A stretch of 64,000 nt of DNA from the NCBI GenBank assembly GCA_964476125.1, contig CAYZAE010000007.1, positions 10,290 to 74,289 on the forward strand, given 5' to 3'. Each line of letters begins with the position of its first letter. Position 1 is the stretch's first letter. A program made the position numbers and the translations under genes. Positions 22,625 through 41,434 of the stretch are shown here, one piece after another. The stretch comes from an uncultured Verrucomicrobiota bacterium (GTDB lineage Bacteria > Verrucomicrobiota > Verrucomicrobiia > Limisphaerales > CAIMTB01). Below the pieces are notes generated by a model. It was given only the letters and a program-made list of their open reading frames with translations, was not told where the DNA came from and ran no database searches.

Positions 22625-23431
22625 TCAGCTGAGGAGCCGGAGGGCTCCCTGCGGAAGGGTGTTCGCCTGGGCGAGCATGGCCGTTCCGGATTGGACGAGG
22701 ATGTTGTACCTCGCGTACTCGGTACTCTCTTCGGCGACGTCGACGTCTTTGATCCGACTGTTGGCGGCTGAGAGGTTGGACTTCAGGTCTCCGAGTTGCT
22801 CGGTCGTATAGTTGAGTCTCTGCAGGTTGGCGCCGACCGTGGCGCGGTCCGCGGACAGCTGGGTGATGGCGGCCTTCACGTTCGTGAGGGCGGTGGCGGC
22901 ACCACCGAGTGCGGAGAGGTCCATGCCCTGGGTGGCATCGGTATAGACCGTGCCTCCGAGGTCGACGTTGGACATGCTCCAGGTGTTGGCATCGCTGTCT
23001 ACGGTGACATTCAAAGCCGTGGCCGAGAAGAGACTCACTCCGTTGAAGTCCTTGGTCGCGATATCGTCGACATATGTGGCCAGTTCCTGATATTCCTTAT
23101 CATAGAGGGCCTTGTCGGCGGTGGTCTTGGTGACATCCTGGGCGAGCACGGCGAGTTCACTCATGCGATCGAGGGCCTTGTGGGCTTTCTTGAGAAAGCC
23201 GTCCTGGGTCTGGCTGAACGAGATCGCATTCGAGAGGTTGCTGGTGGTCGCGTTGATGCGGTTTACCTGGGCGTCGAAGCGCATGGAAACCGCGAGTCCT
23301 GCCGAGTCGTCCTCCGGGGAGGTGATCTTGGAGCCGGAGGAAAGGCGGGTCAGTGACTTCGCCAATCGGGTGGACGATTCCGAGAGCAATTGAGAGCTGA
23401 GTTGAGCCGAGATGTTGGTGTTAATGATCAT
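22625..23431 (-). CDS. fliC: Flagellin (short, D0/D1-only type)
   Basis: 268 aa. MIINTNISAQ...RLSSGSKITSPEDDSAGLAVSMRF...N-terminal half, and C-terminal EESTEYARYNILVQSGTAMLAQANTLPQGALRLLS. Confidence 0.95.
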   Translation of the reverse strand: MIINTNISAQLSSQLLSESSTRLAKSLTRLSSGSKITSPEDDSAGLAVSMRFDAQVNRINATTSNLSNAISFSQTQDGFLKKAHKALDRMSELAVLAQDVTKTTADKALYDKEYQELATYVDDIATKDFNGVSLFSATALNVTVDSDANTWSMSNVDLGGTVYTDATQGMDLSALGGAATALTNVKAAITQLSADRATVGANLQRLNYTTEQLGDLKSNLSAANSRIKDVDVAEESTEYARYNILVQSGTAMLAQANTLPQGALRLLS

Positions 23432-23438
23432 AACCGTA

Positions 23439-23496
23439 CTCTTTCCGTGAGTCGCCCCATACGGGGCCTTGACGTCTTTGGCGGCATCCTTGCCGC
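23439..23496 (-). promoter_or_regulatory. Flagellin-1 mRNA leader with two CsrA-type GGA sites (hairpin loop plus SD-overlapping)
   Basis: Minus-strand RNA has GCGGC-AAGGAU-GCCGC (23481-23496) and UCACGGAAAGAG (23439-23450) just 5' of the AUG. Confidence 0.5.
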
Positions 23497-23742: not shown

Positions 23743-24549
23743 TCAGCTCAGGAGCCGCAGGGCGGCCTGGGGCTGGGCGTTTGCCTGGGCGAGCATCGCG
23801 GTGCCCGATTGCACGAGGATGTTGTACCTCGCGTATTCGGTGCTTTCCTGGGCGACATCGACGTCCTTGATGCGGCTGTTGGCGGACATCAGGTTGGTCT
23901 TCTGGATCGCGAGTTGTTCGTTGGTGTAGTTGAGTCGGGTGAGATTGGCCCCGATGGTGGCGCGGTCCGTGGACAGCTGGGTGATGGCCGCCTTGACGTT
24001 GGTGAGGGCGGTGACGCCTCCGTTTGCGGCGGAGAGATCCATGCCCTGGGTGGCGTCGGTGTAGGTGGCGGTGCTGAGGTCGACGGCGGACATGGCCCAG
24101 GTTGCGGCTTCGCTATCGACGGTGACGTTCAGGGCGGTGGAGCCGAAGAGGCTGACGCCGTTGAAGTCCTTGGTGGCGATGTCGTCGACGTAGGCGCCGA
24201 GTTCCTGGTATTCCTTGTCGTAGAGGGCTTTGTCAGCCGTGGACTTGGTGACGTCCTGGGCGAGGACCGCGAGTTCGCTCATGCGATCCAGGGCCTTGGA
24301 GGCCTTCTTGAGGAAGCCCTCCTGGGTCTGGGTGAACGAGACGGCGCTCGTGATGTTGTTGCTGGTGGCGTTGATTCGGTTGACCTGTGCGTCGAAGCGC
24401 ATGGACACCGCGAGTCCGGCTGCGTCGTCTTCCGGGGAAACGATTTTCGATCCGGAGGACAGGCGTGATAGCGACTTGGCCAGGCGATTGGAGGAATCAG
24501 CGAGAAGCTGAGAGCTCTGCTGGGCCGAGACGTTTGTGTTGATGACCAT
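23743..24549 (-). CDS. fliC: Flagellin paralog (short type)
   Basis: ATG at 24549 (MVINTNVSAQ) aligns with paralog 1 and with an identical SD spacing. The ORF-track start 24555 is a GTG two codons upstream. Confidence 0.95.
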   Translation of the reverse strand: MVINTNVSAQQSSQLLADSSNRLAKSLSRLSSGSKIVSPEDDAAGLAVSMRFDAQVNRINATSNNITSAVSFTQTQEGFLKKASKALDRMSELAVLAQDVTKSTADKALYDKEYQELGAYVDDIATKDFNGVSLFGSTALNVTVDSEAATWAMSAVDLSTATYTDATQGMDLSAANGGVTALTNVKAAITQLSTDRATIGANLTRLNYTNEQLAIQKTNLMSANSRIKDVDVAQESTEYARYNILVQSGTAMLAQANAQPQAALRLLS

Positions 24550-24554
24550 AACCA

Positions 24555-24612
24555 CTCTTTCCTTGAGCGGCCCCGGGAGGGGCCTTGTTGTTTTTTAACG
24601 GCATCCTTGCCG
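24555..24612 (-). promoter_or_regulatory. Flagellin-2 mRNA leader with two CsrA-type GGA sites
   Basis: Minus-strand RNA has CGGC-AAGGAU-GCCG (24599-24612) and CUCAAGGAAAGAG (24555-24567) over the SD. Confidence 0.5.
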
Positions 24613-24686: not shown

Positions 24687-24714
24687 GCATCGGCCGGATG
24701 GCCGGATGTCTTTA
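24687..24714 (-). promoter_or_regulatory. sigma28-type promoter of flagellin-2
   Basis: Minus strand reads TAAAGACA-N12-GCCGATGC. The -35 overlaps the stop codon of the upstream HD-GYP gene. Leader length is about 130 nt, as for flagellin-1. Confidence 0.5.
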
Positions 24715-25959
24715 GCAATACACCAGCAGCGACTGGGTGATGTCGCTGACGAGGTTGTGGTTCTTGAGTTTGGTGATGTGAGGGAGGCTGAGGGCTTCGC
24801 CGGCCCGGATGAGGAGGATGCCGTTGGAGGTGTAGATGCCGCTGGCGAGGACCATTCCGGGGGTCAGTTCGGAGATGAGGACTTCGCGTTGGCGGCGGGG
24901 GACGACGGCATGGGGCAGGCTGCGGGTGAAGGCGCGGACGGCTTCGGGATCGAAGGCGGAGCCGCTGGCATTGCGGATCCATTCGACGGCGACGGGGCCT
25001 TCGGTGGGGCAATGGGCGTAGGCGACGGCGACGGCCAGGAGGCGGGCGAGCCAGGGGATTTGATCGCGGGAGAGGTGGTCGGGGTATCCGGTGCCGTCGA
25101 AGCGTTCGTGGTGGGCCCGGATGATGGTGCCTACGGCTTCGAGGTTATGGCCGAAGTTGGCGAGTTCCTGGCCGGCGGCGGGGTGACGTTCGATGAGGAG
25201 GCGTTCCGATTCGTCGAGGCTGTTGGGATCGGTTTGCCATTTGCGGATGAGGCTGCGTGGAGTGCCGAGGAGGCCGATATCGTGGAGCCAGGAAGCGATC
25301 TCAAAGATTTGGCGGTCGTCGGGGGAGAGTTCGAGGCTGCCGGCCATGGCCTTGCAGAGTTCGAAGACGCGGCGGGCCTGGTGGGCGAGGATGGGGTTGA
25401 AGGCCTCCAGGGATTTGACGCTGAGAAGGATGGAGCGGTGGAGGTTGTTGTGGAGGGCGCGGTTGAGAAGGTCGAGTTCGGAGTTTTGTTCGGCGATGCG
25501 GGCGACTTTGGCGGAGAGTTCCGCGTTCATGCCGCGGGTGGCTTCGTAGAGGGCGGCGTTGGATCGGAGCAGTTCGAACCGCTGGACGGCGTTTTTTACG
25601 GCCGCGAGGAGTTCCTCGCGCAGCCAGGGCTTGATGATGAACCGGTAGATTTCGCCTTTGTTGATGGCATCGATGGCGACGCTGAGGCTGAGAACGGCGG
25701 TGATGAGGATTCGCGAGGCGTCGGGCTGGAATTGTTTGGCCTGGGCGAGGAATTCCAGGCCGGAGAGCTGGGGCATTTGCTGGTCGGTGATGATGACACC
25801 GAAGGATTCCTTTTTGATCCGCTCGAGCCCGTCGAGGGGATTGGCCAGAGCCACCACATCGTAGCCCTCCCGTTGAAGTGCGCCCGAGAGTGCAATGAGG
25901 ACGATCTGTTCGTCGTCGATGATCAGGATCCGGTTGCGCGGGTCGGGAGAGTCGGCCAT
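24712..25959 (-). CDS. Response regulator with HD-GYP (c-di-GMP phosphodiesterase-type) output domain
   Basis: 415 aa. REC (ILIIDDEQ...VIITDQQMPQLSG...FIIKPW), then HDIGLLG...HHERFDGTGYP. Confidence 0.88.
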   Translation of the reverse strand: MADSPDPRNRILIIDDEQIVLIALSGALQREGYDVVALANPLDGLERIKKESFGVIITDQQMPQLSGLEFLAQAKQFQPDASRILITAVLSLSVAIDAINKGEIYRFIIKPWLREELLAAVKNAVQRFELLRSNAALYEATRGMNAELSAKVARIAEQNSELDLLNRALHNNLHRSILLSVKSLEAFNPILAHQARRVFELCKAMAGSLELSPDDRQIFEIASWLHDIGLLGTPRSLIRKWQTDPNSLDESERLLIERHPAAGQELANFGHNLEAVGTIIRAHHERFDGTGYPDHLSRDQIPWLARLLAVAVAYAHCPTEGPVAVEWIRNASGSAFDPEAVRAFTRSLPHAVVPRRQREVLISELTPGMVLASGIYTSNGILLIRAGEALSLPHITKLKNHNLVSDITQSLLVYC

Positions 25960-25975
25960 GGCGGCGGGGGGAATG

Positions 25976-27979
25976 TCAGGTGAAGAGGTTCCGGATGCGG
26001 CGGACCATCTCGGCTTCGCTCATGTCGGTCCCGATCAGCAAGTCTATTCGCGGCAGGAGGTCGCTGGGAAGTTGTTCGGGGTCGCCGCCGACCAGCTGAA
26101 GGATCACGGTGAGTTTGGGGTGGGACTGTCGGACCTCGGGGATGAGATGGAGGAAGGAGGTGTCGGCGGGGCTCGCGAGCACGGCCAGTCCATGGAACTG
26201 GTTGTCTTCGCCGGCGAGGATGTCGCGGGTGCGGTCGGGAGCGAAGGCCTGGAGGACGTAGTAACCGTGGACGCGGAGGAATTCGGCGGTGGAGTCGTGG
26301 AGGAATCCGGGTTCGCCGGCGAGGAGGATGCTGGGGCGTTGTTGGACGACGGCGTTTTGGACGCGTTCGGCTTCGGAGAAATCGGCGAGGGGCAGCCAGA
26401 TGGAGAACTGGGTGCCGACGCCTTCCTGGGAGGAGACGGAGATGGCGCCGCGGTGGCGTTCGACGAAGAGTCGGGCGTTGTAGAGGCCGAGCCCGGAGCC
26501 TTTGTTGACGGGTTTGGTGGTGAAAAAGGGGTCGAAGACGAGGGGCAGATGGCGTGGGGCGATGCCGCAGCCGGAGTCCTGGGCGCTGAGGCAGACGCAG
26601 GGGAAGTGGGGGAATTTGCCGTGGGTGTGCGGGGGGGGGGAGCCGGATTCGCAGTATTCGGTGCGGAAGGTGAGTTTTCCGCGCTGGGGCATGGCTTCGG
26701 CGGCGTTCAGGGCGATGTTGAGGACCACCTGGCGCAGTTCAACGGCGTCCACGTACAGGGGCAGCTGGCGTGGGCTGAGTTGGGTTTCGACGAGGATTCG
26801 GCGGGGAAGGACGCGTTGGGCGAGGTCGGTGAGTTCGGCGATGGTTTCGTTGAGGTCGAGGTAGTTCTGTTCGCCGGTCTGGCAGCGATGGAGGCTCATC
26901 ATGCGTTGGACGAGCTGGCAGGCCTGCATGGCGTTGCCGCGAATCAGATTAAGTCCGGCGGTGAAGGGGTGTTGATCATCCGTTTGGGAGAGGAACGACT
27001 CCGAGAGGGAGAGGATTCCGGCGAGGATGTTGCTGAAGTCGTGGGCCAGACCCATGGTGAGGGTGGCGAGGGTTTCCTTCCAGGCGGAGGAGGAGAGCCG
27101 GCGTTCGGCGATTTTCTCGCGGGTGACGTCGAGCCAGAAGCCCTCGTAGCAGATGATGAGGCCGGAGGCGCTGACCACCGCCTGCCGGTGTTCCATGACG
27201 TGGGCGACCCTGCCGGTCTGGAGATTCCGGACCCGGAAGTAGGTGGTTACGCCGGCGGGGCTGCGGATGGCGCGGCGGCACTGGTTTTGGAGTTCCTCGG
27301 CATCGGCCTCGTGGATGACCTGCCAGAAGCTGCGGCTTTTGGAGAGCCATTGTTCCGAACCGATGCCCGTGAGGTCGGAGATGCGGGGGCTGACGGACTG
27401 GAAGGAGAAATCGGCGCGCTGGCTGAAGAGGACGCCGGGCCAGGAGTCCATCAGGTTGGCGAGTTGGGCTTCCGCGCGAAGAAGCCGGATGAACATCTGG
27501 CGCGATTCACGTTCGCCGGCGAGGTAGGCGTTCCAGGGGGATTCCGCGAGTTCGGTGAAGGGGGGGAGGGTGGATTGGATGCGGAGGGTCCAGCCTGTGC
27601 CGAGGTGGACCAGTTCGACCTCGTACCATGCGGAGCCTTCCTCCCGGAGGATGCGGAGTTGGCTGGTGGAGAAGGGTTTGGATTCGTCCCACCGGGGGGA
27701 ATCGAGCCAGGCGGGGGCAAGGGTTCCGAAGATTTTGTCCCAGGGCTGTCCGATGGGATCGGTGCCTGCGCGTTGGAACCAGTGGATCAGTTCGTCACTG
27801 AGGCGAAGGATCCTGCGGTCGGTGTCGAGCAATGCCGTGCCGGTTTGGATCCAGAGTAGACTGGCCCTGGACTCTGCAAGGGGCACAGCCGGGATCAGGG
27901 AATCCTGAGCGGGTGGGGGATCGTTGGAGGGGGCGGCGTTGTCGCTCATGGGGTCGGATTCCGGTGGGCGCCGCGCCAT
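25976..27979 (-). CDS. Cytoplasmic PAS-PAS sensor histidine kinase with C-terminal receiver-like domain lacking an obvious phospho-Asp
   Basis: 667 aa. H-box GLAHDFSNIL, ATPase G-box KGSGLGLYNARLFVERHRG. The tail ILLAGEP...GLAVLASP has no acidic phosphoacceptor. Starts 13 nt after the cheA stop. Confidence 0.85.
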   Translation of the reverse strand: MARRPPESDPMSDNAAPSNDPPPAQDSLIPAVPLAESRASLLWIQTGTALLDTDRRILRLSDELIHWFQRAGTDPIGQPWDKIFGTLAPAWLDSPRWDESKPFSTSQLRILREEGSAWYEVELVHLGTGWTLRIQSTLPPFTELAESPWNAYLAGERESRQMFIRLLRAEAQLANLMDSWPGVLFSQRADFSFQSVSPRISDLTGIGSEQWLSKSRSFWQVIHEADAEELQNQCRRAIRSPAGVTTYFRVRNLQTGRVAHVMEHRQAVVSASGLIICYEGFWLDVTREKIAERRLSSSAWKETLATLTMGLAHDFSNILAGILSLSESFLSQTDDQHPFTAGLNLIRGNAMQACQLVQRMMSLHRCQTGEQNYLDLNETIAELTDLAQRVLPRRILVETQLSPRQLPLYVDAVELRQVVLNIALNAAEAMPQRGKLTFRTEYCESGSPPPHTHGKFPHFPCVCLSAQDSGCGIAPRHLPLVFDPFFTTKPVNKGSGLGLYNARLFVERHRGAISVSSQEGVGTQFSIWLPLADFSEAERVQNAVVQQRPSILLAGEPGFLHDSTAEFLRVHGYYVLQAFAPDRTRDILAGEDNQFHGLAVLASPADTSFLHLIPEVRQSHPKLTVILQLVGGDPEQLPSDLLPRIDLLIGTDMSEAEMVRRIRNLFT

Positions 27980-27991
27980 CGGGAAAGGCTA

Positions 27992-30187
27992 TCAATGGGC
28001 GAGGGCGAGGTCGAATCCGGCTTCCTGCGGGGAATCCTCGCGGCCATTGCGGTGGGAGCTTTCGGGGTGCAGCAGATCGTTGACATCGAGGATGAGACCG
28101 ACGCGACCGTCGCCCAGGATCGCTGCACCGGCGATAGCGTGGCAGGGTTTGAAGGATTCGCCGAGACTCTTGATGACGACCTCCTGTTTGCCGAGCAGTT
28201 GGTCGACGAGGAGGCAGCGGCTCTCCTGGTCGGATTCCAGCACGACGACGATGGATTGGGTGGGGTCCTCGCTGGCGGGTTCGATGCCCAGGTAGCGGTG
28301 GAGTCGGAGCATTGGGCACTGCCGGTTCCGGACGTTTACGAGTTCGCCCCGACGCTGGACGGTGGAGATCATCGCGGCCGTTGGGCGGAAGGATTCGCGC
28401 ACGGCCAGGGTGGGGAGAATGAACCGTTGGTCGCCGACCCCGACGATAAGGCCGTCGATGATGGCGAGGGTGAGCGGTAGGCTGATGGTGAACGTGGCGC
28501 CCAAGCCTGGAGTGGAAGCGATTTCGATTTTGCCGCGGAGGCTGCTGATGTTGCGCCGGACGACGTCGAGGCCCACGCCGCGTCCGGAGATTTCAGTTAC
28601 TTTTTCCGCGGTGGAGAATCCCGGGGCGAAGATCAGTGCGAAGACCTCCTGATCGGAGGGGGATTCGTCCTCGCGGAGGAGTCCCTGTTTGCGGGCCTTG
28701 GCGAGAATGCGATCCCGGCTGATACCGGATCCGTCGTCCTTGATTTCGATGACGATGTTGCCGCCGCGGTGGAAGGCGCGGAGTTGGATGGTGCCGTTGG
28801 GAGATTTGTTGGCGGCGATGCGTTTTTCGGGGGATTCGACGCCGTGATCGACGGCATTGCGCATCATGTGGACCAGGGGGTCCTCGAGTTTTTCGATGAG
28901 GTTGCGGTCGAGTTCCGTTTCTTCTCCGGAGAAGACGAGTTCGACCTGTTTGCCGGCCTTGATTGAGAGGTCCCGCACCAGGCGCTTCATTTTCTCGAAC
29001 GTGGCCTGGATTCGAACCATGCGCAGGGACATGGCGGTGCGCTGGAGTTCGGCGGTGAGGCGTCCGAGTTGGGTGAGGTGGCGTGCGAGTTGGGGGGTTT
29101 GCGAGGTCTGGAGGTCCGGGTCGTGGGCGACGAGCGACTGGGCGATGACCAGTTCGCCGACGAGATCCACGAGGCCGTCAAGTTTTTGGGTGTCGACTTT
29201 GACGAACCCGGCGCCGGAGCGGTGGTTGGGGCGGGTGGGTGCGTCACCTCCGGAGGTGACTTGGGGGGAGGCGGTGCCCTGGGGGGCTGGGGAAGTGGAG
29301 GGGCTTGGAGCGGCGGATGCCTGGCCTGCGGTGTCGTTGGTGGAGGGTAGGGTTCCTCGGTTGATGTGGCGCCGGATCCGTTCGATGAGGGGCAGTGTGG
29401 GGAGGCTGATCGGGGTGGGCAGGGCGGCTCCGTTGAGCTGGATCCGGATCTCCTCGACGAATCGGCGCAGGGTGTCGGCGCCGACGAGGATGATGTCGAT
29501 GACCGTGGCATCGATCTCCATTTTTCCCTGGCGGGCGAGATCGAGAAGGGACTCGAGGTCGTGGGCCAGGGTGTGGATGGGCTTGAGGTTGAGGAATCCG
29601 GAGCCGCCTTTGAACGTGTGGAAGGCGCGGAAGATCGAGTGCAGGGTGTCGGCGTCGGTCGGGCACTTTTCGAGGGTGAGCACGCCCTGTTCGATGGTGT
29701 TGAGATGTTCCTCGGATTCCGCGAGAAACTCCCGGAGCAGGTCCCCGTCCCGGGCCAGGTCGAGGAGAAGGGCTTGTTCCTGTCCGGAGGCTGGGTGGTC
29801 GGGGTTGGGAGTGCCGGTGTCGGCGGGGTTGGGCCCATTGCCGGCGGGGGTTGGAGCGGTCAACTCCTCGGGAATCTCGGGGAGGGGGCGTTCCTGTTCG
29901 AAGGCGGCGAGAGCGGTGCGCATCCAGGCGGCCCAAAGGCCGAGGCGCTCAAGGCTGTCCGCGGTGAAGCCTCCGGCATCCAGGGCGGCCTCCACGGATT
30001 GCCGGGCGGCGGCGAGGGCGGCGGAGAGGGGTGGAGGGACCGGACCATCCTTGGTGGCGGTTTCGATTTCTGCGACGAGGCTGTTGATGGGGAGAAGGCC
30101 GTCGTCCTTGCCGGGGCTGGCGAAAACCAGTTCCAAGGCGATTTTCTCTACCCGTTGAGAAATGGCAGAGAGGGTGGGGTCGCTCAT
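27992..30187 (-). CDS. cheA: Chemotaxis histidine kinase CheA
   Basis: 731 aa. Hpt SIFRAFHTFKGGSGFL, dimerisation FVKVDTQKLD, N-box HMMRNAVDHGVE, G-box GRGVGLDVV, and a C-terminal CheW-like domain. Confidence 0.94.
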   Translation of the reverse strand: MSDPTLSAISQRVEKIALELVFASPGKDDGLLPINSLVAEIETATKDGPVPPPLSAALAAARQSVEAALDAGGFTADSLERLGLWAAWMRTALAAFEQERPLPEIPEELTAPTPAGNGPNPADTGTPNPDHPASGQEQALLLDLARDGDLLREFLAESEEHLNTIEQGVLTLEKCPTDADTLHSIFRAFHTFKGGSGFLNLKPIHTLAHDLESLLDLARQGKMEIDATVIDIILVGADTLRRFVEEIRIQLNGAALPTPISLPTLPLIERIRRHINRGTLPSTNDTAGQASAAPSPSTSPAPQGTASPQVTSGGDAPTRPNHRSGAGFVKVDTQKLDGLVDLVGELVIAQSLVAHDPDLQTSQTPQLARHLTQLGRLTAELQRTAMSLRMVRIQATFEKMKRLVRDLSIKAGKQVELVFSGEETELDRNLIEKLEDPLVHMMRNAVDHGVESPEKRIAANKSPNGTIQLRAFHRGGNIVIEIKDDGSGISRDRILAKARKQGLLREDESPSDQEVFALIFAPGFSTAEKVTEISGRGVGLDVVRRNISSLRGKIEIASTPGLGATFTISLPLTLAIIDGLIVGVGDQRFILPTLAVRESFRPTAAMISTVQRRGELVNVRNRQCPMLRLHRYLGIEPASEDPTQSIVVVLESDQESRCLLVDQLLGKQEVVIKSLGESFKPCHAIAGAAILGDGRVGLILDVNDLLHPESSHRNGREDSPQEAGFDLALAH

Positions 30188-30353
30188 GGCAGTCCGTGCG
30201 TTGAAGGGGGCATGGGAGACGGTTGGGACCCGGGTTCCTGGGGGAACCCTTCCCGTGGGTGGCGTCGGACGGTGGACGGGGCGGGGAGCGGTCCTGGTTC
30301 ACTGCCTGGGTTGGACGTGATCGGGTCCCGTGTCATGTCGTGGCCTGTGAAGG

Positions 30354-30381
30354 GTATCGGATGATCGGAATCGTTACTTGA
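30354..30381 (-). promoter_or_regulatory. Candidate internal sigma28-type promoter upstream of cheA
   Basis: Minus strand reads TCAAGTAA-N12-TCCGATAC in the 200-nt cheB-cheA gap. The spacer is 1 nt longer than optimal. Confidence 0.35.
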
Positions 30382-30388
30382 GGGATGA

Positions 30389-31477
30389 TCATCCGCCGCC
30401 GAGGGCTACGTTTCTTGCGAAACGGTTGATGGCGAGGGCGATGTGGTCGAGGGGCAGGATTTCGGAAGCCGCCCCGATCTGGATTGCTTCGCGGGGCATG
30501 CCGAAGACGACGCAGCTTTCCTCATTCTGGGCGACGGTGTGGGCTCCCGCGCGGTGCAGGGTGAGCATGCCTGTGGCTCCGTCCGAGCCCATGCCGGTCA
30601 GGAGCGCGGCGAAGGTGTGGGGTGAGGCGCCGGCGCGCGCGGCGGAATCGAACAAGACGTCCACGGCCGGTCGCTGGTGGTGGAGCATGGGGCCCTGGTT
30701 GAGTCCGGCGACATAATGGCTGCCGTTCCAGCGGGCGATGAGGTGGTAGCCTCCTGGGGCGACGAGAGCCAGGCCGGGTTTCACGACGTCGCCCTCCCGG
30801 GCTTCGCGTACTTCCATCTGGCAGAGCTGGTTCAATCGGGTGGCGAAGGCGAGGGAGAATTGGGCGGGAATGTGTTGGACGATGAGAATGCCGGGCAGAT
30901 CCGCCGGGAGCTGGGTGAGGATGGTCCGGATGGCTTCCGTGCCCCCGGTGGATGCGCCGATCAGGATGAGGGAGCGGGACGGATAGTGGCGGCCCTCGGT
31001 TCGGGGCGAGGTCGGGGGGGCGCCTGGGGCGGCAGCTGCGGCCCGGGCGGCCCGCGAGGGCGGGGGCCGGAAGGTGGTGCGGATGCGGGTTCGAGCCGCG
31101 GCCTTGATGCGTTCGGCGAGTTTGCTGGTGGCATCGCCGACGGCATCGGATCGGCCGGGTTTGGCGATGACATCGACGGCGCCGGCATTGAGGGCTTCGA
31201 GCGCGTGATGAGAGCCGGTGGTGGTGAGGGAGCTCATGACGATGACGGGCATCGGATGGTGGCGCATGAGGACCTTGAGGAAGGTCAGTCCATCCATGCG
31301 GGGCATCTCGATGTCCAGGGTCAGGACGTCGGGTTTGAGCTGGAGGATCTTGTCCCTCGCGACATAGGGATCGATCGCGGTGCCAACGACCTCAATATCC
31401 GGATCCGCGGAGAGGCCGTCCGTGAGTGCTTTTCGGACGAGTGCCGAGTCATCGACGATGAGTACGCGGACCGGCAT
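30389..31477 (-). CDS. cheB: Chemotaxis response regulator protein-glutamate methylesterase CheB
   Basis: 362 aa. REC (VLIVDDS...LTLDIEMPRMDG) plus methylesterase (LILIGASTGGTEA, GMGSDG). Confidence 0.94.
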   Translation of the reverse strand: MPVRVLIVDDSALVRKALTDGLSADPDIEVVGTAIDPYVARDKILQLKPDVLTLDIEMPRMDGLTFLKVLMRHHPMPVIVMSSLTTTGSHHALEALNAGAVDVIAKPGRSDAVGDATSKLAERIKAAARTRIRTTFRPPPSRAARAAAAAPGAPPTSPRTEGRHYPSRSLILIGASTGGTEAIRTILTQLPADLPGILIVQHIPAQFSLAFATRLNQLCQMEVREAREGDVVKPGLALVAPGGYHLIARWNGSHYVAGLNQGPMLHHQRPAVDVLFDSAARAGASPHTFAALLTGMGSDGATGMLTLHRAGAHTVAQNEESCVVFGMPREAIQIGAASEILPLDHIALAINRFARNVALGGG

Positions 31478-31488
31478 GGGGTGTGGGG

Positions 31489-32349
31489 TCAGGTTTGGAT
31501 GGAGACGAAGGCCTGGAGGGTGTCGAGATTGTCGTAGGTCTCGATCATGTAGCGGGGCAGGTCGACGGGGTTGAGTCCGACGAGTTGGAGGGCGTCGGCG
31601 CGGCCGCGGAGGGCGAGGGCGTGATGGCCGTAGCCGAAACCCATGAAGTGGGCGATGAGGTCGCCCAGGTAGACGAAGGAGGCGAGCCGTTCATGGCCGA
31701 TGGCCTTGACGGGGTCGTGGTGGTTCCAGACCGAGGCGACGAGGTCGGCGGGAAAATTCCAGCGGGCAAGCAGGCGTCCGCCGATTTCGGCGTGTTGGAC
31801 GCCGAGGATTTGGGCTTCGCTTTCGAGGAGTGAGGCCTGGTTGATTTCGATTTCGCGGGTGAGTCGCTGGTAGCTGCCCTCAAGGGCCTGGGCGAGGACG
31901 ATTTTCCCGATGTCGTGGAGGATGGCGGCGGTGAAAACGACGCCTTCGTCGGCGCCGGCGTCGCGGGCCATGCTTTTGGCGGCGAGTGCGGTGGCCACGC
32001 TGTGTTTCCAGAGGCCGCCCTCGTCGATTCCGTAGCCCTTGGGGGTGGCTTTGAGGGTGCGGGCGCCGATGATGGCGACGACGAGTTCGTAGACGGCTCC
32101 GAAACCGACCCGGATGACGGCTTCGAAGAGGTCGGAGACGGAGGACGAGTAGCCGAGGGTGGCGCTGTTGCAGAGCCTGAGGACGGCGGCGGTGAGGCTT
32201 GGGTCGCTGGAGATGAGGTTGACGATGGATTCGCTGTCGGCGTCCGGCAGGGAGAGCTGATGGAGGAGCCGCGGCAGGATGACCGGTGCGGGCGGCAGGG
32301 TCTGGACCCGGTCGATATAGGTGTCGAGACTCTTGTTCAATGCTTCCAT
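31489..32349 (-). CDS. HDOD-domain signalling protein
   Basis: 286 aa. LPPAPVILPRLL...SDPSLTAAVLRLCNSA...AAILHDIGKIVL. Confidence 0.8.
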   Translation of the reverse strand: MEALNKSLDTYIDRVQTLPPAPVILPRLLHQLSLPDADSESIVNLISSDPSLTAAVLRLCNSATLGYSSSVSDLFEAVIRVGFGAVYELVVAIIGARTLKATPKGYGIDEGGLWKHSVATALAAKSMARDAGADEGVVFTAAILHDIGKIVLAQALEGSYQRLTREIEINQASLLESEAQILGVQHAEIGGRLLARWNFPADLVASVWNHHDPVKAIGHERLASFVYLGDLIAHFMGFGYGHHALALRGRADALQLVGLNPVDLPRYMIETYDNLDTLQAFVSIQT

Positions 32350-32864
32350 AAAATCATCTCCGAGGTTTGTCCGGAGACTTTCAGGCGGACTTCGCCGGTG
32401 ATGAGTCGCAGGGACATGGTGCGGTTGATGGTGCCGCCGACGTCTTCGGCGGCGATGCGGAGGCGTTCGCGGTCGAGGAGCATTCGGAGCGCCTCCTGGT
32501 TGCGGCGGCCGATGTTGAAGAAGCCTTGGGCATCCATGATTTGGGCTCCTCCAGCCACGCAGATGATGGCGCGACTTGGGTCGAGCCTGAGTTGGCGGGC
32601 GGAACCGAGCAGCTGGGGCAGGCCGGTGTCGAGGAACATGGAGGGGCGGGAGCGCGCCTTTTCCTCGGAGATGCTGGAATCAGGGAGCATGGCGTGGAGG
32701 AGCCCCCCGACCTTGGTGATGGGATCGTAGATTGAGATGCCGAGGCACGATCCGAGGGAGTAGGTGGTGAGGGTGAGGGACGGTTGATTGGCGACCGCCA
32801 TGTCCGCCATGCCAACCACGAGGCGCTGGACCAGTCCCGCGGCGCTGAGTGTGGGTGAGGGCAT
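32337..32864 (-). CDS. cheD: Chemoreceptor glutamine deamidase CheD
   Basis: 175 aa. TYSLGSCLGISIYDP...GGLLHAMLP...GGAQIM...NIGRRN. 13-nt overlap with the downstream HDOD gene. Confidence 0.9.
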   Translation of the reverse strand: MPSPTLSAAGLVQRLVVGMADMAVANQPSLTLTTYSLGSCLGISIYDPITKVGGLLHAMLPDSSISEEKARSRPSMFLDTGLPQLLGSARQLRLDPSRAIICVAGGAQIMDAQGFFNIGRRNQEALRMLLDRERLRIAAEDVGGTINRTMSLRLITGEVRLKVSGQTSEMILWKH

Positions 32865-32870
32865 GGTGGA

Positions 32871-33743
32871 TCAGCGTTTCTGGTAGTAGCTGGGCCTGAG
32901 ACAACGGAACGGAATGGGAAGGCCGACGAGGCTTTCCGAATGTCCGATGAGCAGATATCCGGAGGGCACGATGTGCCGTCCGAGGGCTTCGACGAGCTGC
33001 TGTTGGGTGGGGCGATCGAAATAGATCATCACGTTGCGGCAGAACACCGCCTCGAACTGGTCCGTGATTTCCGGGAGGGCGAGCAGGTTGGCCTGGCGGA
33101 AGGAGATGCGTTCCCGGATATGGCTTTTGACCCGGAAGTTGCCATCGTTTTTTCCGATTCCCTTCTGGAAGTATTTTCGCAGCCAGGCGGCGGGGAGGGT
33201 TTCGAGCCGGCCTTCGGCATAGATTGCCTCGCGGGCGTGATGAAGCACCCGGGTGCTGATGTCGGTGGCCAGGATCTGCCAATCCCAGCCTTCGGCGAGG
33301 GGAAAGGCGGCGTCGAGGTAGAAGGCCAGACTGTACGGTTCCTCTCCGCTGGCGCAGGCGGCGCTCCAGATTTGGAACCGTCGGCGTTGCCTGCCCAGGC
33401 GTTCGGGGAGGGCTTTTTCGACGAGGAATCGGAAATGGTCCTCCTCCCTGAGGAAGCTTGTGAAATTGGTGGTGAGGGCGTCGACGACGTGGGTGATCTC
33501 GTTGTCGTCGTGGGTGCTGCGGATTTGGTCGCAGTAATCGGCGAGGGTGGCGCAGTGGAGGGCCCTCATTCGTTTGCCCAGGCGTGCGCGGATCAGGGCC
33601 TGTTTTCCTTCGTTCAGCTGAACCCGGGAGCGTTCGTAGACGAGGGAAACGATGAATCGGCAGGCCTCGGAGTCGCGGCGGGCCTCGGAGGCTGCGGAGC
33701 GCGACGGGGTGAGGGATTCCTTGGGGTCGGCGCCTTCGGTCAT
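32871..33743 (-). CDS. cheR: Chemotaxis protein methyltransferase CheR
   Basis: ATG at 33743 (MTEGADPK). ALTTNFTSFLRE, IWSAACASGEEPYSLA, FCRNVMIYFD. The ORF-track frame extends spuriously to 34901. Confidence 0.93.
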   Translation of the reverse strand: MTEGADPKESLTPSRSAASEARRDSEACRFIVSLVYERSRVQLNEGKQALIRARLGKRMRALHCATLADYCDQIRSTHDDNEITHVVDALTTNFTSFLREEDHFRFLVEKALPERLGRQRRRFQIWSAACASGEEPYSLAFYLDAAFPLAEGWDWQILATDISTRVLHHAREAIYAEGRLETLPAAWLRKYFQKGIGKNDGNFRVKSHIRERISFRQANLLALPEITDQFEAVFCRNVMIYFDRPTQQQLVEALGRHIVPSGYLLIGHSESLVGLPIPFRCLRPSYYQKR

Positions 33744-33778
33744 GGGGATGTTCGGGCGCAAGCCCGGGCGGCTCGGTT

Positions 33779-34699
33779 TCAAATGATTCCGTCCAGGATT
33801 TGGGGAAGCCGGGCGAGACTGTGTTTCAGGTCGTTCCGGAGCATCTCCTGATCCTCCTCGGTGCGATCGGGGAAGAGAATTCCCCAGCCAGGGAGCTGGA
33901 GCCATGCTTCCTCGTTGATGGGTGCGGGGTTGCCGCTGTCGCCGATGCGGTGCAGGCGGACGATGTGGTTGGCGAGTTGGACGGCGGCGACCAGAGGGGC
34001 GTGACGGGTGGCCTGGGTGGGATCGGCGTGCCAGCGGGCGGTGTCGACGATGCTGTCTGGGAGCCTGTGATGGGCGAGGTACATGGCGCCGAGTTCGCAG
34101 TGATCCATGCCGAGCAGTTCGATTTCGATGTCGCGGAGGTCGCTGGTGGAGTTGGCGGCCTGAGTGCAGACGGCTCCGAATTCGGTGGGGAATTCGGCGG
34201 CCATGACGATGCGGCCGACGTCGTGGAGGAGGCCGGCGACGTATTCGAGTTCGTCCTGGGCGGGTTGGATGGCGCTGGAGATCTCGCGGGTCATGATGGC
34301 GGTGGCGATGCAGTGTTGCCAGAAGCCGCGCCAGGGGAAGGGGTTGTGACGGGAGATTTTCTGGAGGTCTTCGATGACGGGGGTGGACATCGCGAGTTGT
34401 CGGACCTGCCGTATGCCGAGGTAGAAGACGGCTTCTTCGATGCTGGTGACGGGGGAGGAGAGTCCGTAGTAGACGGAATTGACGAGGCGCAGCATCCGGG
34501 TGGCCATGCTGGGGTCGCGTCGGATGACCTCGGAGATTTGGGCGGTGAAGCGTTGTTCCGCATTCAGGAGTTCGCGGAGGACGCCGTTGATGCTGCTGAG
34601 TGATGGCAGAAGGGCACAATTGCTGATCCGCTGGATAATGGCGTTCCTCTCGAGGGGAACGCAGCCTGGTGCGGGGGCGGCTGGCGGCGGCGTGCTCAC
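33779..34699 (-). CDS. HDOD-domain signalling protein, first gene of the che operon
   Basis: LPSLSSINGVLRELL...RDPSMATRMLRLVNS...AGLLHDVGRIVM. A GTG at 34699 sits 12 nt downstream of a sigma28 -10 element. The ORF-track start 34849 would override both divergent promoters. Confidence 0.75.
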   Translation of the reverse strand: MSTPPPAAPAPGCVPLERNAIIQRISNCALLPSLSSINGVLRELLNAEQRFTAQISEVIRRDPSMATRMLRLVNSVYYGLSSPVTSIEEAVFYLGIRQVRQLAMSTPVIEDLQKISRHNPFPWRGFWQHCIATAIMTREISSAIQPAQDELEYVAGLLHDVGRIVMAAEFPTEFGAVCTQAANSTSDLRDIEIELLGMDHCELGAMYLAHHRLPDSIVDTARWHADPTQATRHAPLVAAVQLANHIVRLHRIGDSGNPAPINEEAWLQLPGWGILFPDRTEEDQEMLRNDLKHSLARLPQILDGII

Positions 34700-34710
34700 T
34701 TTCTGCCGGT

Positions 34711-34737
34711 CTATCGGACGGTTGGCGGAAAAGTTGA
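34711..34737 (-). promoter_or_regulatory. sigma28-type promoter of the HDOD-cheR-cheD-HDOD-cheB operon
   Basis: Minus strand reads TCAACTTT-N11-TCCGATAG. Confidence 0.55.
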
Positions 34738-34792
34738 ACCGGGACAGCAAAAATGTCGTGGGTCGGTTTTTTCCCCGGTTTTGTGTTTTGGC

Positions 34793-34819
34793 TAAAGGAC
34801 CGGCAAGAACTGCCGATGG
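34793..34819 (+). promoter_or_regulatory. sigma28-type promoter of cheX
   Basis: Plus strand reads TAAAGGAC-N11-GCCGATGG. The -10 ends 9 nt before the cheX ATG. Confidence 0.55.
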
Positions 34820-34827
34820 GGGTGGTG

Positions 34828-35310
34828 ATGATTGCCAATGTCGAGACACTGGTGAACAGCGCCGTCACGACGGTCTTCGACACCATGTTGGGACTTCCCA
34901 TGAAGGACGCTCCCGTGGAGGCCTGTGTGTTTGGGGATGCCCCCCAGATCGCAAGTGCCGTGGGGTTCGCCGGGTCGGCCTCGGGTGTGATCTATCTTTA
35001 TACGACGGTCCGTTTCGCGGGCCGGATCACGGGAGGGCTGCTGGGGCTTCCGGAAGCGGAGGCTCAGCGGGAGGACTACGTGAACGACGCCATGGGTGAG
35101 ATGGCCAACATGGTGATGGGCCATGTGAAGTCCCGCCTGACGGATCGCGGCGTGAAGTGCGTGATGACGATCCCCTCGATCGTCCGGGGGTCCGGACTTG
35201 GCATTGAGGCGGTGAGTCATACCAGGGTGCAGCGGATGGGATTCCGCAGCGGAGACGATTTCGTGTTGGTGGAGGTACTGATCGAGAACAGCGACGGTAA
35301 GGGGAAATAA
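34828..35310 (+). CDS. cheX: CheY-P phosphatase CheX (CheC/CheX/FliY family)
   Basis: MIANVETLVNSAVTTVFDTMLG N-terminus. Family motif D-x3-E-x2-N ... P is present as DAMGEMAN-x21-P. Confidence 0.8.
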   Translation: MIANVETLVNSAVTTVFDTMLGLPMKDAPVEACVFGDAPQIASAVGFAGSASGVIYLYTTVRFAGRITGGLLGLPEAEAQREDYVNDAMGEMANMVMGHVKSRLTDRGVKCVMTIPSIVRGSGLGIEAVSHTRVQRMGFRSGDDFVLVEVLIENSDGKGK

Positions 35311-35332: not shown

Positions 35333-36475
35333 ATGGGCCCAAAGATACTTACGGTCGACGATAGCAAAACGATCCGCATGATTGTGGCGAGGGCATTCAA
35401 ATCCTTCGCGTGCGAGATCCTAGAAGCGGCGGACGGCGTGGAAGGATTAGCCGTCGTGAACCGGGAGAAGCCCGACATCATCCTGCTGGATTACACCATG
35501 CCGGTGATGGACGGCTTCGAGATGCTCAACAAGCTCAAGTCGGATCCTGATACGCGCAATATTCCGGTGGTGATGCTCACTGCCGAGGCAGGGCGTGACA
35601 ACGTCCTGAAGATTGCGCGCCTGGGTGTCCGCGACTATCTGGTCAAGCCGTTCAAAGAGGACCTGGTGGTGGAGCGTGTGGGGCGCATCATAGATTTGAA
35701 GGCCTGGCACGAGGCAACCGCCAAGGCCAAGCGCTTCGACGATCCCCTGCAGATCCTGCTGGTGGACGACAAACCCGCGATCCTGGATCTGGTGAAGTCG
35801 GGGCTGTCGGACACCAACTGGGTGTTGAATGCGCTGACGCAGGCGGGGCAGGCGGTGGACTTCTGTTCCCGGCAGATGCCGGACGTGATCATGGTCAGTC
35901 TTTCGCTGACGGAAGGGGCCGGGTTCATGCTCTTCCAGATGATGCGGGCGGCGTTCAAGACCAAGGCCATTCCGGTGTTTGCGCTGAGTGTGAAGACGGC
36001 GCTTGAGGAGCAGCAGAGGGCGCAGCAGATGGGGTTCTCCGGCATCATCACCAAGCCGATTGATGTTGAGGATCTCAAGTCCAAGGTGACCCGTGCGCTC
36101 AATCTGGATACCTCGTACCGGTACTTCCTGATGAAGGACGGGGTGCTGCTGCTGAAGCTGCCCGCCAACTTCAATCCGCATGCCGCCAATGACATCACCA
36201 TGAACCTGCGGACCAAGGTTACCGAGAGCGTGGATGCGGGTCTGGGTCGGTTGCTGATGGACATGAGCCAGCTGTCGAGTGCGGATGTGAATCTCATCAA
36301 GCTGGGAATCACGGTGACCAGCCTGTGCCAGGAACTCGGTGTCAAACTCACCATGATCGGTTCCGCGGCGGTGAGTGCCGAGTGCAAGAATTACGAGGAA
36401 ACCAAGGACTGGCAGTTCGTTAACAGTTATGAAGAAGGCCTGTCTCAGCTCAATGGCGCCTCGGCCGGCGGGTAG
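35333..36475 (+). CDS. CheY-like receiver / degenerate receiver / STAS-like three-domain protein
   Basis: 380 aa. REC1 has DD, LLDYTMPVMDG, MLTAE, LVKPF. REC2 has Ser (VIMVSLSL) at the phospho-Asp position. The C-terminal about 110 aa (LLLKLPANF...LMDMSQLSSADVNLIKLG...LTMIG) resembles the STAS/anti-sigma-antagonist fold. Confidence 0.7.
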   Translation: MGPKILTVDDSKTIRMIVARAFKSFACEILEAADGVEGLAVVNREKPDIILLDYTMPVMDGFEMLNKLKSDPDTRNIPVVMLTAEAGRDNVLKIARLGVRDYLVKPFKEDLVVERVGRIIDLKAWHEATAKAKRFDDPLQILLVDDKPAILDLVKSGLSDTNWVLNALTQAGQAVDFCSRQMPDVIMVSLSLTEGAGFMLFQMMRAAFKTKAIPVFALSVKTALEEQQRAQQMGFSGIITKPIDVEDLKSKVTRALNLDTSYRYFLMKDGVLLLKLPANFNPHAANDITMNLRTKVTESVDAGLGRLLMDMSQLSSADVNLIKLGITVTSLCQELGVKLTMIGSAAVSAECKNYEETKDWQFVNSYEEGLSQLNGASAGG

Positions 36476-38821: not shown

Positions 38822-39255
38822 ACAAGGTTGTATCGGCAGCCGGAGCGCCTGGGATTGGCGCGGATCTGGAGGGGCACCTCGCCCTGTGCCGGGAGGTGCT
38901 GGAGTTGGTGGAGCGGGAGGGGGAGGCGTTGCGGCAGCCTGGAGAGTTTGAAGGCAGGGACTTCGCGGTGCGTCGGGCGTCGCTGCTGCCGCGTCTGGAG
39001 AAGTCTCTGGGTGCGCTGCGGCATGCCCGGGAGGCCTGGCTGCGGCTCGACCCGAGGGTGAGGAGCCGGCAGACTGATCTGGATTCGCTGCTTCGCGACA
39101 ATCAGAATTTGATCATGAAAATCATCGTCCTGGACAGGGAGAACGAGCAGGCGCTGCTGCGGCGCGGCCTGCTGCCTCCGGGACATCTGCCGACCTCGCA
39201 GAGCCAGCGTCCGCACATGGTGGCGGCCCGGTACGCCAAGAACCTCCCAGCCTGA
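38818..39255 (+). CDS. Small helical hypothetical protein, possibly FlgN-like
   Basis: 145 aa. ATGA overlap with the TPR gene. Helical heptad pattern with LLRDNQNLIMKIIVLDRENEQALL, reminiscent of the FlgN family. Weak call. Confidence 0.4.
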   Translation: MNKVVSAAGAPGIGADLEGHLALCREVLELVEREGEALRQPGEFEGRDFAVRRASLLPRLEKSLGALRHAREAWLRLDPRVRSRQTDLDSLLRDNQNLIMKIIVLDRENEQALLRRGLLPPGHLPTSQSQRPHMVAARYAKNLPA

Positions 39256-39264
39256 CGAGGAGCA

Positions 39265-40918: not shown

Positions 40919-41434
40919 TCAGGCCTTGGCGAACTCGAGGGCGTCGACTTCCTGGGGAGCGAGGATTCGGTCGAGATCGATGAGCAGTTTCACGAGTCCC
41001 CTGCTCTTGGCCACTCCCAGCAGATAGCGGGTATCCACGTCCGTTCCAAAGTCCGGGGTGGCCTCGATTTCCTGGGGATTGATGGTCATCACTTCCTCGA
41101 CAGCATCGACCACCAACCCGGTTTCGCGGCGCATTCCGGATCCGATCTGGATCTGAACGACGACGATGCACGTGTGCTCGGTGGTGGTTGGATCGGGGAA
41201 GCCGAAGCGCATGCGAAGATCGATCACGGGAATGACCTTGCCTCGGAGGTTGATGACCCCCCGGACGAAGTCGGGCATCTGGGGAACCCGGGTGATATCC
41301 GTCATGCGGATGATTTCGCGAACCTTACGGACGTCGACGGCGTAGGATTCCTCCATCAGCGCGAAGGTGAGGTATTTGCCGCCGTGTCGGGACTCGGTCG
41401 GAAGGGTGGGAAGAGCCTTCTCGGGGGTGGTCAT
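40919..41434 (-). CDS. cheW: Chemotaxis coupling protein CheW
   Basis: 171 aa. YLTFALMEESYAVDVRKVREI...VPQMPDFVRGVINLRGKVIPVIDLR. Confidence 0.92.
   Translation of the reverse strand: MTTPEKALPTLPTESRHGGKYLTFALMEESYAVDVRKVREIIRMTDITRVPQMPDFVRGVINLRGKVIPVIDLRMRFGFPDPTTTEHTCIVVVQIQIGSGMRRETGLVVDAVEEVMTINPQEIEATPDFGTDVDTRYLLGVAKSRGLVKLLIDLDRILAPQEVDALEFAKA

Follow-up and report, generated by a model that had tools for sequence, protein, structure and literature searches.

Introduction

HD-GYP proteins are not uniformly phosphodiesterases of cyclic diguanosine monophosphate (c-di-GMP). Inactive members of the HD-GYP/RpfG family, represented by HnoD, RpfG and ECA3548, work via protein contacts, and HnoD modulates another phosphodiesterase while carrying out no c-di-GMP hydrolysis of its own (bioRxiv 10.1101/2021.11.05.467447). 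DvhD offers an inactive HD-GYP domain that acts as a c-di-GMP receptor (PMC13090378), and PA2572, a degenerate REC-HD-GYP protein, influences motility and has a chemoreceptor-like protein as its partner (PMC3411652). In Pseudomonas, Xanthomonas and Campylobacter, proteins with an HDOD domain have likewise been associated with phenotypes in motility (PMC11813219, PMC11004494). Here, we describe a chemotaxis locus that contains genes for both protein types, a REC-HD-GYP response regulator and two HDOD proteins, in a 64,000-nt stretch of DNA (hereafter the window) from an uncultured Verrucomicrobiota bacterium (assembly GCA_964476125.1, contig CAYZAE010000007.1). In our literature searches, we came across no che cluster for which HD-GYP or HDOD genes were reported as defined members, and no experimental study of chemotaxis in Verrucomicrobia.

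The locus spans positions 24712-34699 of the window. It holds eight minus-strand genes in the order HDOD1, cheR, cheD, HDOD2, cheB, cheA, a PAS histidine kinase gene and the REC-HD-GYP regulator gene. A preliminary description had read these as one atypical che operon, devoid of cheY, cheW and mcp, whose output would be c-di-GMP hydrolysis. Our analysis identifies the locus as a lineage-specific variant of a known flagellar chemotaxis system. On balance, we consider it probable that this is an ordinary flagellar chemotaxis cluster, and that the regulator belongs to a separate kinase-regulator module and is unlikely to degrade c-di-GMP as an output of CheA. What remains noteworthy is a pseudo-HD-GYP subfamily with its own PAS kinase, the coupling of cheD to an HDOD gene, an extra CheA domain and a CheY fusion.

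The degenerate HD-GYP domain of the regulator

The regulator gene (24712-25959, minus strand; Pfam REC and HD_5/HD) encodes a receiver, a long helix, a degenerate HD-GYP domain (residues 189-350) and a small C-terminal domain (residues 352-415), as modelled by AlphaFold2 (AF2) with a predicted local distance difference test (pLDDT) score of 87. The receiver is complete, its residues D15, D16, D59, T87 and K110 being invariant in 47 sequences. Its best PDB match is 2rjn, the receiver of a REC-HD protein (E 7e-25), compared with E 4e-9 for CheY, and it is of the RpfG/HupR 'KPW' type rather than the CheY type. Pfam assigns the output domain to HD_5 (E 1.8e-24), the HD, HHE and GYP motifs are present, and a Foldseek search with the AF2 model retrieved PA4781 and PmGH at E ~1e-9 and DvhD (9rbz) at E 4e-9.

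The HD-GYP domain could be aligned unambiguously to PA4781, PmGH, V-cGAP3 and DvhD, and the alignment took in 13 orthologues from related loci and 120 database homologues. Residues are numbered below by their PmGH positions, and counts refer to the 120 homologues. H189 is replaced by Q in the window, as it is in 111 homologues; K225 has become L (116 homologues), D305 has become V (118) and D308 has become A (114), and the segment bearing R314 and K317 is deleted in the window and in all 120. H221 is still a histidine in the window, with Tyr at this position in 13 homologues. By contrast with these losses, D222, H250, H277, G284 and P286 are kept in every homologue and H276 in 119, and position 285 is Tyr in 114 and Phe in six. 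The metal-ligand set H189-H221-D222-H250-H276-H277-D305 therefore reads Q-H-D-H-H-H-V in the window, accompanied by L for K225 and A for D308. Approximately 95% of the 120 homologues share this degenerate pattern, and the alignment of the 13 orthologues agrees. A full-library search extends it further: among the nearest cluster representatives at 50% identity (those of at most 900 residues that were aligned), 71 are degenerate in the same way, with D-H-HH-G[YF]P retained in 50 of them, and 19 representatives are canonical.

Mutagenesis of PmGH gives these substitutions a functional context. The H189A, K225A and D308A changes abolish activity and D305A markedly lowers it, and D222, H250 and H276/H277 belong to the metal site nearest GYP (PMC4159591). 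Since D222, H250 and H276/H277 are kept while H189 and D305 are replaced, the regulator family is predicted from the alignment to retain this one metal site and GYP, and to have lost the others. Further, residues that are essential in PmGH are missing together, and for this reason the regulator is probably not a phosphodiesterase and c-di-GMP hydrolysis by it is unlikely.

The C-terminal domain (24715-24906) is a small alpha/beta fold that carries an invariant L.PGM...G.YT.NG..L motif and has no Pfam match at E <= 10. Its G-x-M signature recalls DUF3391, a domain that precedes many HD-GYP domains.

Chemotaxis genes and the flagellar motor

The genes required to carry a chemotactic signal to the motor are encoded around the locus. 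Divergent from the eight genes, and about 130 nt upstream of them, lie cheX, the gene of the CheY-P phosphatase (34753-35310, plus strand; Pfam CheX E 1e-17), and the gene of a 380-residue CheY-type protein (35333-36475, plus strand; Pfam Response_reg E 2e-43, in two stretches). The first receiver of this protein, REC1, is complete (D9, D10, D53, T83, K105), and the second, REC2, has Ser at the phospho-site and hence no phospho-Asp. PDB matches of the protein are PleD and CheY. REC1 is 52-64% identical to the products of single-domain cheY genes that stand beside cheX in other Verrucomicrobia, whose clusters encode CheA-CheW-MCP-CheR-(CheD-HDOD)-CheB-CheX-CheY (MCP, methyl-accepting chemotaxis protein). 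In those genomes, the single-domain CheY is followed by a separate gene; in the window, CheY is fused to REC2 and to a tail of ~120 residues. This tail reads as STAS-like, with RsbS as its best PDB match at a non-significant E of 1.2.

The cheW gene (40919-41434, minus strand; Pfam CheW E 7e-39) and the mcp gene (44449-46071, minus strand; Pfam MCPsignal E 6.5e-41) are found 6-11 kb from the locus, in the fliD operon. The FliM protein begins with VLSQNEVENLL, an instance of LSQxEVxxLL, the motif at which CheY-P docks in E. coli FliM. The absence of cheY, cheW and mcp noted in the preliminary description is thus accurate for 24712-34699, yet only in this narrowest sense, as the whole system has them. 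CheW, MCP, CheR and CheB are present, as are a CheY-type receiver, a docking site on the motor and linkage to flagellar genes. The system therefore has the testable features of a flagellar chemotaxis pathway, and its motor output is most likely normal. The features tested for a pathway of the Wsp kind, in which a c-di-GMP enzyme is the output, were not found.

Synteny of the kinase and regulator genes

Two samples of genomes bear on the association between the regulator and cheA. The first comprises 80 genome loci found via CheA and mapped by tblastn with 19 window proteins; the second comprises seven regulator homologues on long contigs, chosen independently of CheA and inspected across a 10-kb context. 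The gene order of the window is common to L001, L032 and L085, the last of which was found later. Some ten other subdivision 3 genomes have the arrangement flagellin-fliD-...-kinase-regulator-(hybrid kinase)-cheA-cheW-mcp, in which the pair lies upstream of cheA with a promoter motif between them, and across the loci such a motif separates the pair from cheA in seven. Horticoccus, Chthoniobacter and other Verrucomicrobia have cheA-cheW-mcp-cheR-(cheD-HDOD)-cheB-cheX-cheY and no kinase-regulator pair.

The kinase and regulator genes are adjacent in 11 of 13 CheA-seeded loci and in all seven regulator-seeded loci. In each of these seven, the PAS kinase gene is directly upstream of the regulator gene, and a hybrid kinase gene comes next in three. 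Only one of the seven contexts, of the window type, contains cheA. Two others (L082, L084) are flagellar clusters with no cheA within 10 kb, and the remaining four (L083, L086, L087, L088) have neither flagellar nor che genes within that distance. Because the pair recurs without cheA in these contexts, the kinase-regulator pair is the constant unit, and its link to cheA is lineage-specific. The conserved neighbourhood with cheA that the preliminary description had anticipated is not seen: elsewhere, the pair lies upstream behind its own promoter, in flagellar clusters that lack cheA, or in unrelated surroundings. We also considered whether kinase and regulator are always paired, and rejected this, since L011 and L005 carry the regulator without the kinase.

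A hybrid kinase gene usually follows the HD-GYP gene in other genomes to form a trio, as in the contexts of L006, L008, L040, L045, L052, L082, L086 and L087. The related gene of the window belongs to the fliD unit, where mcp and cheW flank it. In the non-flagellar contexts of L083 (11287-16069) and L087 (20666-21275), the pair adjoins genes for further REC-HD_5 and REC-HDOD proteins and for a GAF-PAS kinase, which points to HD-GYP/HDOD signalling neighbourhoods of larger extent there. Scanning metagenomes with the PAS kinase yielded a single distant locus (30% identity) and no synteny information.

Promoters and transcription units

The eight minus-strand genes were confirmed from the open reading frame (ORF) listing and Pfam scans, in the domains, order and close packing originally proposed. 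They are HDOD1 (33779-34699, with a GTG start at 34699; HDOD E 1.8e-50), the methyltransferase gene cheR (32871-33743, with its start codon located; CheR E 6e-60, CheR_N E 1.5e-12), cheD (32337-32864; CheD E 1.4e-23), HDOD2 (31489-32349; HDOD E 8e-51), cheB, encoding a methylesterase and a receiver (30389-31477; CheB_methylest E 2.5e-60, Response_reg E 2e-21), cheA (27992-30187; Hpt, H-kinase_dim, HATPase_c and CheW), the PAS kinase gene (25976-27979; PAS_3 and HATPase_c) and the regulator gene. Read from the sequence in 5' to 3' gene order, the spacers measure 35, 6, -13 (an overlap, between cheD and HDOD2), 11, 201, 12 and 16 nt. Two flagellin genes come directly after the regulator gene on the same strand: flagellin 1 (23743-24555; Pfam Flagellin_N and Flagellin_C) and flagellin 2 (22625-23431, identified by Pfam).

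A search for the sigma-28-type pattern T[AC]AA[AG]-N12-17-[GT]CCGAT[AG] gave six matches in the window; the number expected from Markov shuffles is 0.4. Five are upstream of che or flagellar genes, and the sixth falls inside cheB. On the minus strand, sigma-28-like promoters precede fliD (47837-47812), flagellin 1 (24714-24688, overlapping the stop codon of the regulator gene) and flagellin 2 (23597-23572), and a further one, TCAAGT-N14-TCCGATA (30381-30355), occupies the 201-nt gap between cheB and cheA. The plus-strand motif (34793-34818) is upstream of cheX. Reading the sequence ahead of HDOD1 revealed a near-identical motif, TCAAC-N14-TCCGATAG (34737-34711, minus strand). Relatives have comparable sites. 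In L001 and L002, the distance from HDOD1 to a sigma-28-like motif upstream is 31 and 63 nt, respectively; for cheA, a similar upstream motif is 41-74 nt away in L004, L075, L040, L045, L052, L011 and L005. Both closest relatives, L001 and L032, have a GCCGACA variant in the cheB-cheA gap, and sigma-28-like motifs recur in relatives upstream of flagellin, cheX and HDOD1.

The presence of a sigma-28-like promoter in the cheB-cheA gap suggests that the eight genes probably form two transcription units, HDOD1-cheR-cheD-HDOD2-cheB and cheA-kinase-regulator. The single operon of the preliminary description is upheld in its second part, where the kinase and regulator genes are tightly packed behind cheA. 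No promoter or terminator motif was found in the 12- and 16-nt gaps between these three. A generic sigma-70 and terminator scan returned no promoter match, and the only terminator-like sites on the minus strand were weak and inside genes.

Several features of the untranslated regions were observed in addition. In L032, a clear intrinsic terminator, AAAAACCCCG...CGGGGTTTTTT (7340-7395), stands right after the HD-GYP gene, together with an equivalent sigma-28-like motif. The window has no such terminator after the regulator gene, and here the flagellin promoter motif overlaps the regulator stop instead. The divergent region between HDOD1 and cheX (34700-34827) contains two back-to-back sigma-28-like motifs. 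CheX homologues align from residue ~25, so the conserved coding start is probably 34828, and the ATG at 34753 chosen by the ORF finder is probably not used. Because the plus-strand motif ends 9 nt ahead of 34828, either the cheX mRNA would be nearly leaderless or the true start would lie further downstream. The two flagellin leaders (24600-24611 and 23483-23494, minus strand) share an identical GGCAAGGATGCC hairpin with an AAGGA loop. They also hold a ribosome-binding region, AAGGAAAGAG or ACGGAAAGAG, and the same element occurs in L032. Hairpin and ribosome-binding region together resemble the two CsrA sites of flagellin mRNAs. A tblastn search of the window found neither csrA nor fliW; L084 encodes CsrA and FliW beside its flagellin gene.

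Domain structure of the PAS kinase and CheA

The kinase upstream of the regulator is cytoplasmic and had been described as a PAS-PAS protein. One PAS domain is solid (PAS_3, E 8e-6), while the N-terminal one is weak (PAS_4, E 0.12). The HisKA match is also weak (E 0.01). In the sequence, the H-box reads LAHDFSNIL, and motifs N, G1, F and G2 are present. The tail of 120 residues (548-667) is conserved in orthologues and bears out its description as receiver-like without a phospho-Asp. Alignment to REC with hhalign gave 92% probability (E 6e-7), with Leu in the Asp column and GE replacing DD, and Pfam at E <= 10 did not recognise the tail as REC. Both this tail and REC2 of the CheY-type protein classify as aspartate-less receivers.

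An additional N-terminal region and the lack of a P2 domain had been reported for CheA, and both are upheld by an AF2 model (47-sequence alignment, mean pLDDT 79.6). A four-helix bundle at residues 5-97 (window 29897-30175) is modelled with pLDDT >90 and is followed by a disordered linker, the P1 Hpt domain (144-278), a disordered segment (280-331) that replaces P2, and then P3, P4 and P5. The phospho-accepting H190 (FHTFKGGSG) does not vary among 47 homologues. Across homologues (53-73% identity), some residues of the N-terminal domain are invariant; the domain lacks histidine and has no Pfam match at E <= 10. Within it, the motif GLLPINSL resembles the NLKPIHTL segment of P1. A pseudo-Hpt origin of the bundle was considered and not adopted; at an hhalign probability of 16% against P1, it stands as a lead only. 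CheA proteins without a recognisable P2 are common among CheA classes, and its absence here is for this reason no argument against signalling through CheY.

HDOD genes and CheD

Both HDOD proteins match PF08668 over positions 1-196 of 196 (E ~1e-50), and the matches listed for HDOD2 in a homologue search were all close verrucomicrobial relatives. The two genes hold up as conserved components of the locus, HDOD2 being tied to cheD and HDOD1 being divergent from cheX-cheY. The latter arrangement occurs in six loci (L001, L002, L004, L075, L084, L085). For the former, we considered 37 related loci that cover cheR and cheB. These loci are not phylogenetically independent; cheD and HDOD2 occur together in 12 and are both missing from 23, two have cheD only, and none has HDOD2 only. 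Since HDOD2 occurs only together with cheD, we infer a testable partnership in which HDOD2 may act with CheD, possibly standing in for the missing CheC.

Genomic surroundings

The locus is part of a ~40-kb flagellar and chemotaxis supercluster of a subdivision 3 verrucomicrobium that is Limisphaerales/Pedosphaera-like. The best named relatives of CheA and the regulator belong to Verrucomicrobiota and are often labelled Limisphaerales or Pedosphaera. Beyond cheX and the CheY-type gene, the plus strand carries a trio (37067-40764) whose products are a TPR protein, a protein weakly resembling FlgN and a sigma-54 activator of NtrC type (39265-40764). The same trio is kept in L082 (15157-18481), just upstream of flgB/C-fliE-fliF, and from this adjacency it is probably an activator module for flagellar middle genes. 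On the minus strand follow cheW, a hybrid PAS-PAS-HisKA-HATPase-REC kinase gene (41598-44348; Pfam), mcp and fliD (46090-47787; Pfam FliD_N and FliD_C), the last being the first gene of the fliD-mcp-hybrid kinase-cheW unit, for which the starts were located. The genes fliE, fliF, fliG, fliI, fliJ, fliL, fliM, fliN, fliR and flhB occupy 48.8-64 kb.

An Rfam search of the whole window at gathering thresholds gave no match, and hence no c-di-GMP riboswitch or other known leader. The GC skew of the plus strand is +0.18 to +0.30 at 20000-48000, across the minus-strand che and flagellar genes. This positive skew means that the coding strands of those genes are strongly enriched in C. Negative skew is seen as well across 48-64 kb, where flagellar genes lie on the plus strand.

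Proposed mechanism and alternative explanations

Gene content, residues, synteny and promoter motifs are what the analysis shows; the phosphorylation partners, the loss of activity and any effect on motility in the following scheme are inferred. In what is most likely the classical route of chemotaxis, MCP, CheW and CheA would act to phosphorylate REC1 of the CheY-type protein (35333-36475), which in its phosphorylated form would dock on the LSQxEVxxLL motif of FliM and would be dephosphorylated by CheX. Adaptation would be handled by CheR, CheB and CheD with its putative HDOD partner. Late genes would be read from sigma-28-type promoters as separate units, namely fliD-mcp-hybrid kinase-cheW, HDOD1-cheR-cheD-HDOD2-cheB, cheX-cheY, cheA-PAS kinase-regulator and the two flagellin genes. 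The PAS kinase and the regulator would constitute a self-contained two-component pair, elsewhere usually joined by the hybrid kinase, that landed behind cheA in this lineage and is probably co-expressed with it. With all its catalytic motifs and a cytoplasmic PAS input, the PAS kinase most likely phosphorylates D59 of the regulator. The HD-GYP domain would most likely be a non-catalytic binding or adaptor domain under the control of phosphorylation, acting as a nucleotide sensor or on a protein partner.

The scheme originally put forward was a different one, in which CheA, alone or with the PAS kinase, phosphorylates the regulator and chemoreceptor signals thereby lead to c-di-GMP hydrolysis, the converse of Wsp. 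The short, motif-free gaps between cheA, kinase and regulator genes are in its favour, as are the preservation of their order in L001, L032 and L085, the position of the regulator adjacent to or near cheA in 13 CheA-seeded loci, and its place beside cheA without a PAS kinase in L011 and L005. There is also a precedent in P. aeruginosa Pch, a phosphodiesterase that can depend on CheA (PMC3861689). We nevertheless regard this scheme as very improbable. The equivalents of H189, K225, D305, D308 and R314/K317 are lost family-wide, and missing catalytic residues had been named in the preliminary description itself as a finding that would speak against it. A CheY-type gene, cheX, cheW and mcp all occur in the window, as does the docking motif of FliM. 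Relatives have a sigma-28-like promoter between regulator and cheA, the pair occurs without cheA in six of seven regulator-seeded contexts, and the receiver is RpfG-type, not CheY-type. Moreover, known chemosensory systems linked to c-di-GMP are of the alternative cellular function (ACF) or type IV pili (TFP) class, not the flagellar class (PMC8846402). Neither c-di-GMP hydrolysis as the output of the pathway nor the likeness to an inverted Wsp system is sustained by these observations.

A second possibility leaves CheA uninvolved and retains enzyme activity: in an RpfG-type system, the PAS kinase would activate a functional HD-GYP phosphodiesterase, which would lower c-di-GMP while late flagellar genes are expressed and so keep the motor unbraked. 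HD, H250, HHE, DG.GYP and the receiver phospho-site are invariant in the family, and co-expression with flagellar genes would suit control of motility by c-di-GMP. Active RpfG-family proteins need their kinase (bioRxiv 10.1101/2021.11.05.467447), and PmGH with D305A or E185A keeps some activity (PMC4159591). Set against this, four to five residues that are individually crucial in PmGH, K225 and D308 among them (PMC4159591), have gone together, the base-contacting R314/K317 segment is deleted, and the HD histidine is itself Tyr in 13 of 120 homologues. We therefore rate this possibility as unlikely, though as the least unlikely of the alternatives. The pair could otherwise be a passenger, an autonomous module unrelated to motility that came to lie behind cheA by chance in this lineage. 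Such an origin would account for the four of seven contexts without flagellar or che genes within 10 kb, and for the variable position of the pair relative to cheA. It would not account for the many genomes that place the pair in late flagellar units (fliD-fliS-x-kinase-regulator) or behind cheA, with sigma-28-like promoters, a placement more frequent than an unrelated module would predict. HD-GYP and HDOD proteins have, further, been tied to motility repeatedly (PMC11004494, PMC11813219, PMC3411652), and chance placement seems to us improbable.

The interpretation we favour, a flagellar chemotaxis cluster with a separate kinase-regulator module, has points against it of its own. The D305A variant of PmGH is not fully dead, and the loss of activity in the regulator is deduced from alignment; the metal site that is left, which is strictly conserved, could together with GYP serve some other catalytic activity. 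The sigma-28 assignment comes from consensus matching. In 13 CheA-seeded loci, a sample selected by CheA, the pair is within ~2.5 kb of cheA, and in L011 and L005, where the regulator lies between fliS-x and cheA and has no PAS kinase, another kinase, possibly CheA, may serve it.

We speculate, and consider it doubtful, that REC-HD-GYP proteins retaining only one metal site and GYP form a large class of phosphorylation-gated nucleotide sensors or adaptors which, in subdivision 3 Verrucomicrobia, have been wired into the sigma-28 flagellar regulon and talk to the chemotaxis kinase, with a cheD-coupled HDOD protein taking the place of CheC as the partner of CheD in adaptation. Such crosstalk would fit the lineages in which the regulator stands beside cheA without a PAS kinase. 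If the sensor or adaptor role is correct, the cell would gain a second-messenger-sensing branch of chemotaxis. If the favoured interpretation holds, the locus is not Wsp in reverse, and the tempting label of 'RpfG family c-di-GMP phosphodiesterase', which hundreds of entries in databases carry, would be wrong. It would also define a widespread subfamily of pseudo-enzymes among HD-GYP regulators, whose strictly conserved residual metal site suggests a binding function. HDOD proteins, repeatedly linked to motility, would gain in CheD a concrete and testable partner.

Comparison with known systems

Shewanella HnoD and P. aeruginosa PA2572, which is associated with the MCP PA2573, resemble the regulator in combining a receiver with a degenerate HD-GYP domain downstream of a kinase or sensor. 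The regulator differs from both in what it retains (HD, HHE and GYP) and in what it has lost (H189, K225, D305, D308 and the R314/K317 segment). It also has an extra C-terminal domain of 64 residues, and its partner PAS kinase ends in an Asp-less receiver tail. With D. vulgaris DvhD it would share the use of a non-catalytic HD-GYP fold as a nucleotide-binding switch (PMC13090378), a role that is only proposed here. DvhD has neither HD nor HH and binds without metal, whereas the regulator keeps D222, H250 and HH, that is, one metal site; further, DvhD is controlled by dCache/PAS and the regulator by a receiver.

In Wsp, which belongs to the ACF class and has a REC-GGDEF output, a receiver-fused domain of the c-di-GMP families is similarly encoded beside a CheA-type kinase. 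Wsp, however, has its own MCP and CheW proteins, a CheA-REC hybrid and no motor output, whereas the cluster in the window is flagellar, and its regulator, which is probably inactive, comes with a kinase of its own and can stand apart from cheA in relatives. A chemosensory system of the flagellar class with a c-di-GMP output would be new, and the evidence here gives it no support. The Pch/DipA-CheA association at the flagellated pole of P. aeruginosa likewise couples c-di-GMP turnover to a chemotaxis kinase (PMC3861689). There, the partner is Pch, an EAL enzyme that is active and is recruited through protein contact, in contrast to the regulator, a receiver protein encoded within the che cluster.

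The CheD and CheX systems of the Thermotoga, Bacillus and spirochaete type share with this locus CheA (P1, P3, P4, P5), CheW, MCP, CheR, CheB, CheD, CheX and a CheY-type receiver, together with embedding among flagellar genes, the FliM docking motif and late promoters of the sigma-28 type. Unlike them, the verrucomicrobial locus has no CheC, and an HDOD gene is translationally coupled to cheD, with a second HDOD gene divergent from cheX-cheY. Its CheA has an extra N-terminal four-helix bundle and no P2, its CheY continues into an Asp-less receiver and a STAS-like tail, and its genes are distributed over several units.

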